From an uncultured Planctomyces sp. (lineage in GTDB: Bacteria > Planctomycetota > Planctomycetia > Planctomycetales > Planctomycetaceae), in assembly GCA_937899075.1 (NCBI GenBank), contig CALDJX010000209.1, positions 5,019 to 69,018 on the forward strand: a stretch of 64,000 nt of DNA, written 5' to 3'. Positions 16,662 through 28,464 of the stretch are shown piece by piece. Position numbers and translations under genes: made by a program. The notes under the pieces were generated by a model. It ran no database searches and was not told the origin of the DNA. It saw nothing but the letters and a program-made list of their open reading frames with translations. Each line of letters opens with the position of its first letter. Position 1 is the first letter of the stretch.

Positions 16662-19600
16662 TCAGCCAGGAAACCGTCCGGTATCGATGAAAGCGCGAAG
16701 CTGCAAACTTACCACTTTCGACGCCTCTTGAAGCTCGGCAAGATGCTCTCGGATTCGATCAAGCTCGCCGTCTTTACCAGCCTTTTCGCAGTCAAATGCG
16801 AGATCATGCGCATCCGAAACACCGAATGTTCGAAAGTTGGCCTTTATCGTGTGAGCCATTCTTTGAGCTGTTTTCGCATCATCCTTCTTCAAGGCATATT
16901 TCAAATCTGCCATGACGATCCGGCCTTCTTCGAGAAACGCTCCGGCAATTTCACGCAATAAACCCCGGTCTCCCTGAGTGATTTTCAGAGCGACCGGCCA
17001 ATCCACCTGGTAGCTTTCCTGAGAGCCTGATTCGCCATCGGCCACGACGATCTTCGCAGCGACTTCTTCGCGAGACACGCCGACGGTGCGAGCGTCTTCG
17101 GCGAAGAACCCGCTCAACGCGTTAATCAACTGCCACGGCCGAACCGGCTTCGACACGTAGTCGTCCATGCCGGACTCCAGGCACAATTCACGATCACCTT
17201 TCATCGCGTGAGCGGTCATCGCGATAATGGGTAAATGACGATCGGTTCCGACCTCGCACTTTCGAATCTGGCGAGTGGCTTCCAGGCCGTCCATCTCCGG
17301 CATCTGAACGTCCATCAAAACGACGTCGAACGATTCTCGCGCCACGAGTTCGACAGCATCCTTACCGTTGTTTGCAACCGTGCCCGCATGTCCCCACTTC
17401 TTGAGCAGCGCCAGCGCGAGCTTCTGATTCACAACGCTGTCTTCAGCCAGCAGAACCCGCAACGGCGGGATAACAACTTCACGGCGTTGCGAATCTTCTG
17501 CATCCGGCCCCCCGGTATCGCCAGTTCCGTCGATAGCCAACGCCGCAACCAGAGAATCGAACAACTCTGATTGTTTGATCGGTTTTCGGATGTAGGCCGA
17601 CACTCCGAACTCGCGGCACTGTTCGACATCCTCTGAGCGATCGCCCGATGTGAGCATCATGATCACAGCGCCGGCGAGTTTTTCGTCGTTACGAATTTCT
17701 GCTGCGAGGGCGAAGCCGTCTTTGTCTGGCATGTGAACATCGCTGAGAACGAGGTCATAACCCTTGTCGGATTCGCGAGCTTGACGCAACGATTCAATCG
17801 CCAGGTCGACACCTTCGACACTCGTCGTTTCAATCCCCCAGTTGGTCAGCATCTCGTCGAGAATCAACCGGTTAGTGGCGTTGTCGTCGACGATCAAAAC
17901 GCGAGAACCCTGAACAATTCGTTGAGAAGGAGCTTTGGGCGGGGTGTCGGAAATTCCAAGCCGAGCCGTAAAGTGAAACGTGCTGCCTTTACCGAGTTCA
18001 CTGTCGGCCCAGATCGTTCCATGCATCAACTGCGTCAATCGAGAACAGATCGTCAGCCCAAGCCCTGTTCCGCCGTACTGCCGAGTCGTCGATGTGTCGG
18101 CCTGTTCGAAAGCCTGAAAGACGGACTTCAGTTTCGTTCGGGCGATTCCGATTCCCGTGTCGGCGACGGCAAAATGCAGCAACGCTGACTGGTCGTCCTG
18201 CTGATCAACTTCGACGTGCACAATCACTTCGCCCTGCTGCGTAAACTTGATCGCGTTACCAACCAGGTTCACAACGACCTGTCGCAGCCGCGACGGATCA
18301 CCAACCAACGCGTCAGGCACGGACGGGTCGATATGACAGGCCAGTTCCAGATCCTCACGATGAGCACGCACCGACAATGATCGCAGCGTGTCTCCCAGAG
18401 TGTCGCGAATGCTGAAGACAACAGAGTCGAGTTCGAGCTTTCCGGCTTCGATCTTTGAAAAGTCCAGAATGTCGTTGATGAGGCTCAGCAGCGAATCCGC
18501 AGAGTCACGCACCATTCCAAGGTACTCGTTCTGAGATTGTGTCAGCTCGGTATCGAGCACCAGTTCCGTCATACCAATCACGGCGTTCATCGGCGTGCGA
18601 ATTTCGTGACTCATATTGGCCAGGAAATCGCTCTTCGCCCGGTTGGCTGACTCGGCTGCTTCCTTGGATTCCCGCAGCTCCTGCTCAGCCCGTTTACGTT
18701 TCGTGATGTCATGCACGAAGGCGCTGAAGATGCACGATTCGGCGTCGCGGATCGGAGAAATCGTCACCTCGACCGGAAACTCTCGCCCGGATTTGTGCAA
18801 GGCGACCAGTTCCAGCCGGCGTTGAATGACGCTGCCTTCGCCGGTCTTCAGAAAATGCTTCAGACCGGCGAGATGAGCGGCGCGATACTGCTCTGGAATA
18901 ATCGTGTCGGCGAGCGTTTTGCCAAGAGCCTCTTCAGACTTCCAGCCAAAAATGACTTCCGCCTGAGGGTTCCAATCAATGATTGTTCCTTCGGCATCCA
19001 TCCCGACGAAAGCGTCGAGAGCCGTGTCGACGATCTGTCGATTGAGCCGTTCACTCTGACTAAGCGCGTTCAACGCTTCCTGCTGAGCGGTAATGTCACG
19101 AGAAACTCCGAACGTGCCGACCACTTTATTATCGCGATCCCGCAGCGGAAGTTTGCTGGTTGATACCCACGTCGTTCGACCGTCTGGCCAGGTTTCTTTC
19201 TCGACTTTGTCAAGAACCGGCTCACCCTGTTCCATCAACTCGACTTCGTCCGCTCGCGCCTGTGCCGCGTGCTCGTTCGCAAAGAAGTCCTTGTCGGTTT
19301 TCCCGACGGCGTCAGACGGTTCGCCCAGGTTAAACCAGTCAGCCATCGCGCGGCTGACGCGGATGAACCTGCTGTCGCGATCTTTGAAGTAGATGTTGTC
19401 CGGCAGGTTCTCCATCAATGAGCCAAGGAGGTAACGCTCCAGCTCAAGCTCTTTGCTCAGTCGCTGGCGTTCGAGCGCGTAGCTAATCGAATGTTCCAAC
19501 CGCGAGACGTCGAACACATCTTTGACAAGGTAGTCGGCTGCTCCGGCTTCGAGCGCTCGCTGATCGATCTCGCGATCGGTCTGTCCCGTCAGAATGATGA

Positions 19601-19874
19601 CGGGCGACTTTGAACCCGCGGCTTTAGCCTGGTGGAGAACCTCAATTCCGTCCGTCGCGCCCAGCCGATAATCCAGAAGATAGATCTCGTGCTGCCCGGC
19701 GAGAATTCCTGCCAGACCGGCCTCGGGCTCAGCGGTCCATTCAAGTTCGACAATGCGACCGTCGATCTCGCGAAGAAGCTCCTTCGTCAGCGCGAAGGTA
19801 TTTTCATCATCGTCGATCAACAGAATTCGCAGCGACTCGGGCATCGACACGTTCCAACGACAAGGGACACGCAT
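16662..19874 (-). CDS. Hybrid sensor histidine kinase with REC, two PAS, HisKA, HATPase, two further REC and HPt domains
   Basis: N-terminal REC (ILLIDDDEN...YLLDYRLG). H-box SHEIRTPMNAVIGM. G-boxes DTGIGI and GGTGLGL. Two receivers (LSDVHMPDKDG, LMDVQMPEMDG). C-terminal HPt AHTIKANFRTFG. The likely start is Met at 19844. Confidence 0.9.
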   Translation of the reverse strand: MRVPCRWNVSMPESLRILLIDDDENTFALTKELLREIDGRIVELEWTAEPEAGLAGILAGQHEIYLLDYRLGATDGIEVLHQAKAAGSKSPVIILTGQTDREIDQRALEAGAADYLVKDVFDVSRLEHSISYALERQRLSKELELERYLLGSLMENLPDNIYFKDRDSRFIRVSRAMADWFNLGEPSDAVGKTDKDFFANEHAAQARADEVELMEQGEPVLDKVEKETWPDGRTTWVSTSKLPLRDRDNKVVGTFGVSRDITAQQEALNALSQSERLNRQIVDTALDAFVGMDAEGTIIDWNPQAEVIFGWKSEEALGKTLADTIIPEQYRAAHLAGLKHFLKTGEGSVIQRRLELVALHKSGREFPVEVTISPIRDAESCIFSAFVHDITKRKRAEQELRESKEAAESANRAKSDFLANMSHEIRTPMNAVIGMTELVLDTELTQSQNEYLGMVRDSADSLLSLINDILDFSKIEAGKLELDSVVFSIRDTLGDTLRSLSVRAHREDLELACHIDPSVPDALVGDPSRLRQVVVNLVGNAIKFTQQGEVIVHVEVDQQDDQSALLHFAVADTGIGIARTKLKSVFQAFEQADTSTTRQYGGTGLGLTICSRLTQLMHGTIWADSELGKGSTFHFTARLGISDTPPKAPSQRIVQGSRVLIVDDNATNRLILDEMLTNWGIETTSVEGVDLAIESLRQARESDKGYDLVLSDVHMPDKDGFALAAEIRNDEKLAGAVIMMLTSGDRSEDVEQCREFGVSAYIRKPIKQSELFDSLVAALAIDGTGDTGGPDAEDSQRREVVIPPLRVLLAEDSVVNQKLALALLKKWGHAGTVANNGKDAVELVARESFDVVLMDVQMPEMDGLEATRQIRKCEVGTDRHLPIIAMTAHAMKGDRELCLESGMDDYVSKPVRPWQLINALSGFFAEDARTVGVSREEVAAKIVVADGESGSQESYQVDWPVALKITQGDRGLLREIAGAFLEEGRIVMADLKYALKKDDAKTAQRMAHTIKANFRTFGVSDAHDLAFDCEKAGKDGELDRIREHLAELQEASKVVSLQLRAFIDTGRFPG

Positions 19875-20009: not shown

Positions 20010-21686
20010 TTATTCTTTCTTATCGCCATCGGTCGGTCGTCGACGTCTGCGCCGGCGAGGTGGTCGCTGACCCTCTTCGCTTTTTTTCGTCGAATCTCCG
20101 CCTCGACTGGAACCTCCCCGCGGCGGTCCACTCCGTCCCTGGCTGGCTCCGCGAATGTTGGCTTCAACAATCGAGGACATCGCCTGTTCCCAGGTTGGCA
20201 CGTCGTCCCAGTTGTTGGTGGAATCTCGACTCGGACGGACATCCCTTTCCTCATCGTCGTCTGCCTCATCATCGTCGTCGTCGTCCGAGTCTTCGGCCTC
20301 GACGTCATCTGACTCAACTTCGCTGCTTTCCTCTGCGCGGGCGCGAGGTTTTCGGCGGCGACGGCGGCGACGTGGTCGTTTCTCTTCTTCTTCACCCTCT
20401 GAATCATCATCGTCCGCTGATTCTTCAGCGACTTCACCTTCGTCGTCATCTTCGACTTCCGAATCTTCGTCGGTCTCAACGCGAGGCTTGCGACTTCGAC
20501 GGCGACGTCTTCGGCGACGTGGTCGTTCCTCTTCGGAATCTTCCTCGTCGTTATCCGAATCCGAATCAGCGTCGGAATCGTCTTCCGTTTCGCTTTCTTC
20601 GTCGGAGTCGACTTCCGCTCCGAATTCATCGTCAGCAGGCTTGCGACGACGACGTCTGCGGCGTCGACGGCGTTTCGGCTGTTCCGACTCTTCTTCATCC
20701 GAATCGGCTTCAGAGTCCGCGTCGTCGGTAGCGGCTTCTTCCGAGTCTTCGTCGTTTTCATCCGAATCTTCTACCGAATCTTCTACCGCATCTTCGTCGA
20801 CCGGGCGACGTTTTCGGCTGCGGCGTCGACGGCGGCGTTTTGGCTTCTCTTCTTCATCGTCGTCGTCACGACTCGCTGCAACCGATGAATCTTCAGACTG
20901 GTCGTCGTCAGCAACGACCTCAGTTTTGTCGTCGTCGTACGCTTCATGCCCGAAGAAGTTTTCTTCTTCATCGTCGACAATTCCAGCGCCGAATCCGAAT
21001 GAATCGTCTTCCTGCGGTGGCGCGGGCTTTGTTTCTCGCGGCGGACGACTTTTCTTCGGACGATCTTCAGCGACTGGTTTTTTAGTGGCAGGCGCGGCCG
21101 CTTCGACACGGTCTCCGTCGTTGTCCACGCTGGTCCGCTTCGCTTCGACGGTTGGTTTCTTCTCTGCCGGGGGAGCGGATTCCGCTGCTGGACGTGACGA
21201 GCTTTTCTTTCCGCTGATCCCACCGACGTTCCAATCGTCGAGCGGGTCCCAGAAGGAATCATCGGCGTCCGACTTCGGGACGCTCTTTCGAGTCGGTCGC
21301 GGCTCACGGTCTTCAGCAACCGGTTCGGGTGTTCGGGTCGCCGTGCGGGCAGGTGCAGGCACGGGCTCAGCAGCGACTTTTTCTTCTTCCTCATCGTCAT
21401 CTTCAAAGATGATGTCGAAGTCGTCGTCATCGTCTTCGAAGACGATGTCTGAATCCTCGTCTTCGTCTTCAAAATCCGAATCGTCGGATTCTGCGACTGT
21501 CTCAGACTCGACTGGCTCGTCGTCGACGGGCTCTTCCGGTTCCGGCTGGGGATCCAGAGAGGAAAGATCGATCACTTCGAACGGCTCGTCATCGGAATCG
21601 GCCTTTCCGACGTCAATTCCAAAAAGGTCTTTAGCGAGACCTTCCCACGAGTCTGGATCGTTCGATGAATTTTGATTGGTTGTCAT
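20010..21686 (-). CDS. Intrinsically disordered, charge-block protein (polyacidic tracts alternating with poly-Arg runs)
   Basis: 558-aa ORF. Five runs of 6-10 consecutive Arg (e.g. KRRRRRRRRRRK, encoded by mixed CGN/AGA codons) separated by D/E/S-rich blocks. It has a non-repetitive N-terminus (DSWEGLAKDLFGIDVG) and a C-terminal motif (NNWDDVPTWEQAMSSIVEANIRG). The mirror Ser-rich ORF on the + strand is judged a shadow. Confidence 0.6.
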   Translation of the reverse strand: MTTNQNSSNDPDSWEGLAKDLFGIDVGKADSDDEPFEVIDLSSLDPQPEPEEPVDDEPVESETVAESDDSDFEDEDEDSDIVFEDDDDDFDIIFEDDDEEEEKVAAEPVPAPARTATRTPEPVAEDREPRPTRKSVPKSDADDSFWDPLDDWNVGGISGKKSSSRPAAESAPPAEKKPTVEAKRTSVDNDGDRVEAAAPATKKPVAEDRPKKSRPPRETKPAPPQEDDSFGFGAGIVDDEEENFFGHEAYDDDKTEVVADDDQSEDSSVAASRDDDDEEEKPKRRRRRRSRKRRPVDEDAVEDSVEDSDENDEDSEEAATDDADSEADSDEEESEQPKRRRRRRRRRRKPADDEFGAEVDSDEESETEDDSDADSDSDNDEEDSEEERPRRRRRRRRSRKPRVETDEDSEVEDDDEGEVAEESADDDDSEGEEEEKRPRRRRRRRKPRARAEESSEVESDDVEAEDSDDDDDDEADDDEERDVRPSRDSTNNWDDVPTWEQAMSSIVEANIRGASQGRSGPPRGGSSRGGDSTKKSEEGQRPPRRRRRRRPTDGDKKE

Positions 21687-22027
21687 GCGTTAAACATTCT
21701 CAAACACAAACAGGACTGGCATTGGGAGTTCTGCGAGAGCGGCCATGTGGCCCGTGAACGCCGTCTGGCGCCAGGCTCCGGCACAGAATCCGTTAGATAT
21801 TGCGTGAAGTCTGCCGTGTGGCAGCCTTTCAGAGAGTCGGAAAGAGCCGCGGAGTCTAGCGAGAAGGAACTTTCACCGCCATTTGGTCTTGCGAAATCTG
21901 TTCCGACCGAAATACCGCCGCGCCGGCATGTCCCTGCGCAAGGGATCCACATTGACACTTCTGGCCGGTCGCAAATACAAGCTGGCCTCTTCTATTTTCA
22001 CGACGCCAGGATTCCGGAGCGACAAGG

Positions 22028-23370: not shown

Positions 23371-28464
<5,094 letters not shown>

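Follow-up and report, generated by a model that had tools for sequence, protein, structure and literature searches.

Condensation of alphaproteobacterial RNase E into bacterial ribonucleoprotein bodies (BR-bodies) is driven by its alternating charge blocks, which bind RNA and one another, and an excess of negative charge, with a median of −0.12 per residue, sets the properties of the condensates (PMC13616956). The REER-repeat region of Pseudomonas aeruginosa RNase E is described as Arg/Glu-rich, disordered, RNA-binding and needed for degradosome foci (summarized in bioRxiv 10.64898/2026.03.25.714103). Bacterial RNA-decay condensates have thus far been tied to disordered regions within RNase E itself, mostly in Proteobacteria. 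Here we describe a planctomycete gene whose product resembles such regions in its parts but is encoded as a separate protein. It lies in a stretch of 64,000 nucleotides (nt) from an uncultured Planctomyces sp. (assembly GCA_937899075.1, contig CALDJX010000209.1, positions 5,019 to 69,018), referred to in full as the window, where the minus-strand open reading frame (ORF) 20010–21686 with an ATG start encodes a protein of 558 amino acids (aa). The evidence for the gene and its family is solid; with regard to function, the analogy is suggestive of a charge-patterned RNase-E-type scaffold with its own putative docking motifs. An earlier note, made from the letters of the window, had singled out this ORF for its alternating polyacidic tracts and poly-Arg runs and had regarded such architecture as characteristic of proteins that coacervate or bind nucleic acids. 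That link fits the results reported here, as the closest analogues found are the disordered regions of RNase E.

A family of charge-patterned Planctomycetia proteins

The protein contains five runs of consecutive Arg, at residues 284–289 (6 Arg), 339–348 (10), 390–397 (8), 439–445 (7) and 544–550 (7). As the earlier note had described, all of them are embedded in a K/R/P context, which reads EKPK-R6-SRKRRP, EQPK-R10-KP and ERP-R8-SRKPR for the first three runs and KRP-R7-KPRAR and RPP-R7-P for the last two. The spacing of 25 to 45 aa given in the note applies to the first four blocks, which have D/E/S spacers of 39, 36, and 33 aa between them and an acidic tract of 30 aa after the fourth, but not to the fifth run, which is located 98 aa past the fourth, C-terminal of the conserved non-repetitive motif near the C-terminus. 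That motif (WDDVPTWEQAMSSIVEANIRG) and the acidic N-terminal half (DIVFEDDDDDFDIIFEDDDEEEE) are both present as stated in the note. With 194 D and E residues and 95 K and R residues, the protein has a net charge of −99 (−0.18 per residue) and a charged fraction of 0.52. A kappa-like charge-segregation index gave 0.475 compared to 0.179 ± 0.017 in shuffled sequences (n = 2000; maximum 0.24), and for residues 271–558 alone the z-score was 15.9. The Arg runs are encoded by mixed codons (CGC/CGT/CGA/AGA), and Tandem Repeats Finder (TRF) detected no long DNA repeats in the gene and just two small ones, both outside the Arg runs, indicating that the runs are kept at the protein level and do not represent DNA slippage tracts. 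No other ORF of the 8-Mb genome has three or more runs of at least six Arg. AlphaFold, supplied with the family alignment, predicted disorder throughout (mean predicted local distance difference test score, pLDDT, 43.5) except for two helices at residues 14–22 (pLDDT about 75) and 499–512, which lie in a pLDDT range of 72–78 and coincide with two conserved motifs close to the termini. In the acidic region, the 33-nt × 2.6 tandem repeat at 21388–21473 leads to a duplicated DIVFEDDDDD/FDIIFEDDDEE unit and is the sole recent-looking internal duplication in the gene.

The earlier note could not assign the protein to a known family, and this was borne out by searches of Pfam and NCBIfam, in which neither the window protein nor 17 members of its family gave a match, with the exception of a weak HC2 hit (E = 0.065) for one member. 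Profile searches of the PDB with the N- and C-terminal motifs yielded chance matches only. An exact look-up in a collection of 15 billion proteins returned no record for the window protein, the ORF antisense to it or six relatives, including the one from Alienimonas chondri. A word-indexed search with the whole protein was dominated by low-complexity candidates and gave only two hits, and a search with the N-terminal region gave none.

Relatives were found with profiles. Orthologues are present in six of the seven genomes of the genus, with 51 to 71% identity. A 52-residue profile of the N-terminus was searched against a sample of 400 genomes of the phylum, 20 of which belong to the same GTDB family; it matched 17 of these 20, and in the other 380 genomes there was one weak match, a false positive. 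The window protein scored E = 2.7e-29 with the N-terminal motif profile (residues 14–24). When the 17-member profile was run against 1.84 billion proteins, 810 clusters at 50% identity were obtained at E ≤ 0.001 and 228 at E ≤ 1e-10; among the matches listed, the C-terminal motif was present in 129 of 150 clusters, and of the 151 proteins retrieved, 129 had this motif and 106 matched a regular expression for the Trp-rich motif. The class was surveyed with a 76-member profile in 121 genomes, with f-numbers denoting families within the class. Matches were obtained in f1 (22/28, plus four more with the N-terminal profile), f3 (5/18), f8 (2/5), f119 (1/2), and f121 (1/1), and the stand-alone protein was not found in the class genomes of f4 (0/29), f5 (0/25), f6, f7, or f122. 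The hosts comprise Pirellulaceae-like genomes, four other families of the class Planctomycetia, and Alienimonas, and a Rhodopirellula sp. is among the orthologue carriers. These results define a large protein family of the Planctomycetia with several conserved short motifs and without a Pfam or NCBIfam model. In the papers searched, neither the motif strings of the family nor any planctomycete degradosome scaffold was found.

From the N-terminus to the middle, the conserved elements of the family are DDSWExLAxDLFGI, (F/Y)WDALxxWxW, and at least one acidic DDxFGxG(L/I) motif. The C-terminal half contains one to three Arg blocks of the type E-x-(R/K)-P-Rn-G/R, the motif Y-x-(N/D)-(V/I)-PTWEEAISYLL, and a basic RG/RS tail. 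The window protein carries VPTWEQAM at residues 496–503 followed by an RG/S-rich tail and represents an extreme form of the family: it has five Arg runs and a charged fraction of 0.52, whereas 126 family representatives have 0 to 3 runs, with a median of 1, and reach a charged fraction of 0.475 at most (median 0.39). Each of the 126 carries a net negative charge (median −0.10 per residue). A comparison of homologues had been proposed as a check in the earlier note, and its outcome is that the terminal helix motifs are conserved while the number of Arg runs varies. The N-terminal motif occurs a single time in the genome that contains the window, the terminal motifs of the family were found nowhere else in it, and its other proteins with an FG motif form no meaningful set.

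Parts shared with planctomycete RNase E and the proposed function

The one annotated match of the first search, and one of the two phmmer hits, came from an alphaproteobacterium: it is the RNase E P0002, in whose C-terminal domain acidic stretches flank EKPKRKRRRRPRRR blocks. Outside the class, the family profile matched only the charge-block tails of four RNase E/G homologues (L070, L071, L072, and L074 in genomes G194, G041, G558, and G469) and one unrelated protein (L073). The four tails are C-terminal, belong to other classes of the phylum, and consist of modules with an acidic tract, (E/D)RP-R7-11 (or KKKRRRRR), GG, and a further acidic tract; L070 was identified as Rne/Rng by NCBIfam. 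The tail groups differ in a conserved C-terminal tip, which is either GYSNS(I/V) or LYGGARR. The unrelated L073 (G337 C33:527–2263, minus strand) comes from another planctomycete family and has 579 aa; its tail carries two GAP-R7-8 blocks flanked by acidic stretches, and its N-terminal domain gave no NCBIfam match.

Within the class, similar parts were found inside RNase E itself. In the sister families f4, f5, and f6, disordered extensions bring RNase E to a length of 900 to 1500 aa (L080–L085 in G037, G028, G029, G620, G581, and G592; L082 = P0152). The long enzymes of f5 and f6 carry an insertion of 300 to 470 aa between the S1 domain (FLHxSDV..YF) and the segment RPPIQ..VLVQVIKEG, and these insertions contain polyacidic tracts, DDxFGxGL motifs (EDDFAAGL, DDSFGLGI, EDEFGAGI), and Arg/Lys-rich basic blocks. 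The basic blocks of the f6 enzyme L082 are poly-Arg (SRPKRRRRRRRRGGRG; SRPK-R8-GGRG) and are accompanied by an RG/RS tail, and in the two f4 proteins read, a single R-block is located in a long extension that precedes the catalytic core. Apart from the terminal helices, the f5 and f6 insertions hold the parts list of the window protein. The DDxFGxGL-type motif occurs 2.2 times per 1000 aa in the family, 0.007 times in the ORFs of the window's own genome, and not at all in shuffled family sequences; it is enriched about 300-fold over the genome background in the family and the RNase E insertions alike, with several copies per insertion (L081, L082, L084). The papers searched contain no description of the f4 to f6 RNase E insertions, and to our knowledge the long planctomycete insertions have not been described.

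The stand-alone protein and the long RNase E have a complementary distribution. The only RNase E/G of the window's own genome (contig C299) has 557 aa, is without a disordered region, and has about 30 aa at the insertion site next to S1. Among the 121 genomes of the class, the RNase E/G frame measures 526 to 638 aa in every one of the 32 that have the stand-alone protein, and none of the 53 whose frame exceeds 800 aa has it. Three further protein-bearing genomes with a clean frame, including that of Alienimonas chondri, have an RNase E/G of 528 to 592 aa, as predicted. The window protein contains neither an S1 domain nor the RNase E/G catalytic core (PF10150 and TIGR00757 were not matched) and thus stands outside the RNase E/G family. 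The earlier note had considered that its reading would fall if homologues revealed a known scaffold domain such as an RNase E C-terminal-like region. The parts do resemble RNase E disordered regions, but they are encoded by a separate gene and are combined with conserved motifs of their own.

In some bacteria, the disordered regions of Rho favor the binding of RNA or phase separation. The Rho protein of the same genome (G000 contig C38:13876–15763, plus strand) has a disordered N-terminal extension of about 250 aa with DDEGRP-R9-PQGG, an Asn/Gly-rich stretch, and RG repeats. Its PNPase has only a short acidic tail.

On this basis we propose, with a probability of roughly 40%, that the protein acts in trans as an RNA-binding scaffold of the condensate type and is linked to RNase E/G. 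The mechanism is suggested by analogy, because the charge-rich regions of alphaproteobacterial and Pseudomonas RNase E behave in this way. The protein would work like a disordered scaffold region of RNase E that is supplied as a separate polypeptide. Its Arg blocks would serve as multivalent stickers for RNA and for its own acidic tracts, and the surplus of acidic spacers would keep it soluble and dynamic, so that RNA-dependent condensates could form. The terminal helices together with the W and FG motifs would dock clients, the prime candidate being the short RNase E/G of the lineage, which has no disordered region. A more tentative extension is that the disordered scaffold that captures RNA and forms condensates, which other bacteria have within RNase E, exists in Pirellulaceae and some neighboring Planctomycetia as an independent protein that docks via its terminal helices on a minimal RNase E/G. 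The BR-body or degradosome scaffold would then occur here in a two-component version, the first of its kind outside the Proteobacteria.

Several observations weigh against a link to RNase E/G. Composition-adjusted BLASTP of the protein against an RNase E tail detected no similarity (E = 11), and hhalign aligned only a single Arg module of 16 to 20 residues with the RNase E regions. The similarity is therefore modular and compositional, and common descent is not supported; in addition, the terminal motifs of the family are absent from the RNase E insertions. The complementary distribution follows family boundaries and may reflect one or two evolutionary events, as kin are not independent. A short RNase E/G without a detected stand-alone protein is present in 13 of the 18 f3 genomes and in many families outside the class. 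In six complete genomes the gene was never adjacent to rne, the distance being 43 kb to several Mb, and its neighbors vary (MtaB, IleRS-like, thioredoxin-like, hybrid kinase). Finally, the Arg module is also found in the Rho protein of the same genome and in the unrelated L073.

In a possible though doubtful alternative, the protein would have no relation to RNase E and would serve more generally as a polyampholyte hub or chaperone, such as a factor associated with ribosomes or translation, one that buffers basic proteins, or a binder of cations or polyphosphate, and its resemblance to RNase E disordered regions would be convergent. The alternative would be in line with an Arg module that is not specific to RNase E, with a homology to RNase E regions that cannot be demonstrated, and with translation-related neighbors in other genera, namely, MtaB downstream in five genera and an IleRS-like gene divergently upstream in five loci. 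Against it stand the lack of a neighbor conserved across the family, the occurrence of the stand-alone protein with a short RNase E/G in 32 of 32 genomes and with a long one in none of 53, and the rare FG motif that the family has in common with the RNase E insertions.

It is unlikely that the protein is a nucleoid protein of the protamine or histone H1 type that condenses DNA through its poly-Arg runs. Runs of 6 to 10 Arg resemble protamine tracts, and the weak Pfam match in one of the 17 family members mentioned above is to HC2 (PF07382), but a strongly basic character is not found: the window protein has a net charge of −99, and every one of the 126 representatives is negative. Moreover, it is not the Arg runs, whose number varies between 0 and 3 in these representatives, but the terminal helix motifs that are conserved, and no DNA-binding domain was found with Pfam or NCBIfam.

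We consider it slightly less likely still that the N-terminal amphipathic helix is a membrane anchor comparable to the membrane-targeting sequence of RNase E, which would make the protein a membrane-tethered scaffold. The segment DSWEGLAKDLFGID locally resembles the peptide ...SRFFGALKALFSGG of Escherichia coli RNase E (peptide sequence from PMC4372235), and AlphaFold predicted a helix at the N-terminus with moderate confidence. However, identity with the E. coli peptide is limited to 4 of 14 positions, K19 is specific for the genus, and the family consensus WE(x)LA(E)DLFGI gives the helix an acidic character through E, E/S, and D, unlike cationic membrane-binding helices.

Coding strand, feature map, and genomic neighborhood

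The earlier note had pointed out that a Ser-rich ORF on the opposite strand makes the choice of the coding strand a real question. This question was firmly settled in favor of the minus strand by comparison of 40 distinct related loci. The plus-strand ORF 20155–21675 is an antisense register that shares its third codon positions with the sense frame, so that GAN codons (Asp/Glu) appear as TCN (Ser) and CGN codons (Arg) again as CGN (Arg). It is open because the sense protein is almost devoid of Tyr, His, and Gln codons, which are the only ones opposite stop codons. The codon-usage scores of the sense and antisense frames were 0.084 and 0.065, respectively, each within the range of real genes. 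Since the two frames have their wobble positions in common, codon usage and the GC content at third codon positions (GC3), which the note had proposed as a strand test, cannot discriminate between them. The ratio of nonsynonymous to synonymous substitutions (dN/dS) was judged equally uninformative, as replacing D by E, or the reverse, in the sense frame leaves the Ser of the antisense frame unchanged. In contrast, the sense frame was open from end to end in all 40 related loci, while the antisense frame was free of stops in three of them, with a median of six stops. The sense start is also placed consistently, with the N-terminal motif beginning at residue 13 to 19 in most relatives. The conservation of the frame across these loci shows the minus-strand ORF to be a genuine gene that is conserved among planctomycetes. 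That the 506-aa plus-strand frame is the gene instead, or that neither frame is coding, is very improbable despite its being open in the window and scoring like the sense frame in codon usage, as its openness is explained by the scarce Tyr, His, and Gln codons and is lost in 37 of 40 loci, and as Met, the N-terminal motif, and the C-terminal motif are conserved at consistent positions in the sense frame. This is a practical trap: polyacidic/poly-Arg genes yield an open Ser/Arg-rich antisense ORF, and tests based on GC3 or codon usage cannot decide on the strand.

The features of the locus are summarized in Table 1. In an alignment of six species of the genus, the 340-nt region 21687–22027 upstream of the gene shows several invariant blocks of 15 to 25 nt and small conserved hairpins. 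It gave no Rfam match and no convincing covariation or RNA structure, and no sigma-70 consensus and no promoter or terminator consensus on the relevant strand was found in the upstream region.

Table 1. Features of the charge-block protein gene and its surroundings (positions are those of the window; aa, residues of the 558-aa protein)
Feature	Positions	Strand	Basis or remark
Gene for the disordered charge-block protein of 558 aa, including the stop codon	20010..21686	-	ORF; frame open in 40/40 related loci; genus orthologues
N-terminal helix motif DSWEGLAKDLFGIDVG, aa 12-27; consensus DDSWExLAxDLFGI	21606..21653	-	W14, L17, A18, L21, G23 nearly invariant (76 sequences)
PFEVIDLSSLDP motif, aa 35-46	21549..21584	-	Kept in genus and nearby genera (alignments A1/A2)
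Polyacidic tract with hydrophobic punctuation (DIVFEDDDDDFDIIFEDDDEEEE), aa 67-102; contains 33-nt × 2.6 tandem repeat	21381..21488	-	Composition, TRF
Trp-rich motif DSFWDPLDDWNVGG, aa 143-156; consensus (F/Y)WDAL..W.W	21219..21260	-	W146, L149 nearly invariant
Acidic-FG motif and NFFxHxAY (EDDSFGFGAGIVDDEEENFFGHEAYDDD), aa 226-253	20928..21011	-	F232 nearly invariant
Arg block 1 EKPKRRRRRRSRKRRP, aa 280-295	20802..20849	-	
Acidic spacer 1, aa 296-334	20685..20801	-	
Arg block 2 EQPKRRRRRRRRRRKP, aa 335-350	20637..20684	-	hhalign: aligns with RNase E insertion of L082
Acidic spacer 2, aa 351-386, begins ADDEFGAEV	20529..20636	-	
Arg block 3 ERPRRRRRRRRSRKPR, aa 387-402	20481..20528	-	R390-R399, P401 invariant in alignment A1
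Acidic spacer 3, aa 403-435	20382..20480	-	
Arg block 4 KRPRRRRRRRKPRAR, aa 436-450	20337..20381	-	hhalign: aligns with RNase E tail of L070
Acidic spacer 4, aa 451-480	20247..20336	-	
C-terminal helix motif NNWDDVPTWEQAMSSIVEANIRG, aa 491-513; consensus Y.(N/D)(V/I)PTWEEAISYLL	20148..20216	-	P497, W499 invariant; A502, I503 nearly so
RG/S-rich basic tail with terminal Arg block QRPPRRRRRRRPTD, aa 514-553	20028..20147	-	Basic RG/RS tail family-wide
Ser-rich 506-aa antisense ORF, mirror-image artefact, no gene	20155..21675	+	Wobble positions common with sense frame; open in 3/40 loci
Intergenic/leader region, shared with divergent TPR lipoprotein gene; unusually well conserved in the genus	21687..22027	.	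81% mean column identity, 6 species

The gene is located 135 nt upstream of a co-directional hybrid kinase gene (16662–19874), which is followed by genes for a receiver protein, an ABC ATPase, and a permease, and no terminator-like site was found between the gene and the kinase gene. The position upstream of the kinase/ABC block on the same strand, as given in the earlier note, was thus confirmed, but any link between them is a matter of synteny at the genus level: within the genus the gene is flanked by the divergent TPR lipoprotein gene and the co-directional block for the hybrid kinase, receiver, and ABC exporter, and outside the genus the kinase/ABC synteny is gone. In five genera (L012 and L044–L047; G020, G043, G019, G010, and G430), the family gene is immediately upstream of co-directional mtaB, which encodes a tRNA ms2t6A37 methylthiotransferase (TIGR01579), and in several of the five a thymidylate-kinase-like gene comes next. 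The IleRS-like gene noted above is divergently oriented in its five loci, and a thioredoxin-like gene is located upstream in four loci. A conserved operon partner was not found beyond the genus, and the adjacency of the kinase therefore says little about function. Elsewhere in the window, 23371–28464 on the minus strand encodes a 1697-aa Lhr-type DEXH helicase, whose scores with the Lhr-type NCBIfam models that it matched stayed well under their equivalog cut-offs. Behind its helicase core, at around residues 640–740, the helicase has an apparent insertion of low complexity, about 100 aa long.

Comparison with known systems

If the proposed scaffold function linked to RNase E/G is correct, scaffold and nuclease would be separable in evolution. 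This uncoupling is suggested because the protein is present in nearly all sampled genomes of its own family and absent from all sampled genomes whose RNase E carries an equivalent region. It would also provide a clean genetic handle, as the scaffold could be removed without touching an essential nuclease.

Like the C-terminal domain of alphaproteobacterial RNase E, the BR-body scaffold of Caulobacter crescentus and Sinorhizobium meliloti, the window protein has alternating basic and acidic blocks, is net negative (−0.18 per residue, with a family median of −0.10, compared to −0.12 there), and carries short motifs within disorder, which bind clients in RNase E and are candidates for such a role here. 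Unlike that domain, it is a separate polypeptide without an S1 or catalytic domain, its basic blocks are nearly pure Arg, and the motifs of its family (the terminal helices, FWDxLxxW, and DDxFGxG) differ from the sites described for aconitase, RNase D, and PNPase. With the REER region of P. aeruginosa the protein shares predicted disorder rich in Arg and Glu; the REER charges, however, alternate over short distances and are part of RNase E in another phylum. The Rho protein of the same genome contains the same Arg module, there next to an RNA-binding domain, but has just one such module on a folded enzyme and none of the family motifs. With the RNase E insertions and tails of the same class or phylum, the protein shares polyacidic tracts, DDxFGxGL, (S/E)RP(K/R)-poly-R-GGRG, and the RG/RS tail. 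Those insertions and tails are part of RNase E itself, whereas the stand-alone protein is distinguished by its WExLAxDLFGI and PTWEEAI helices.

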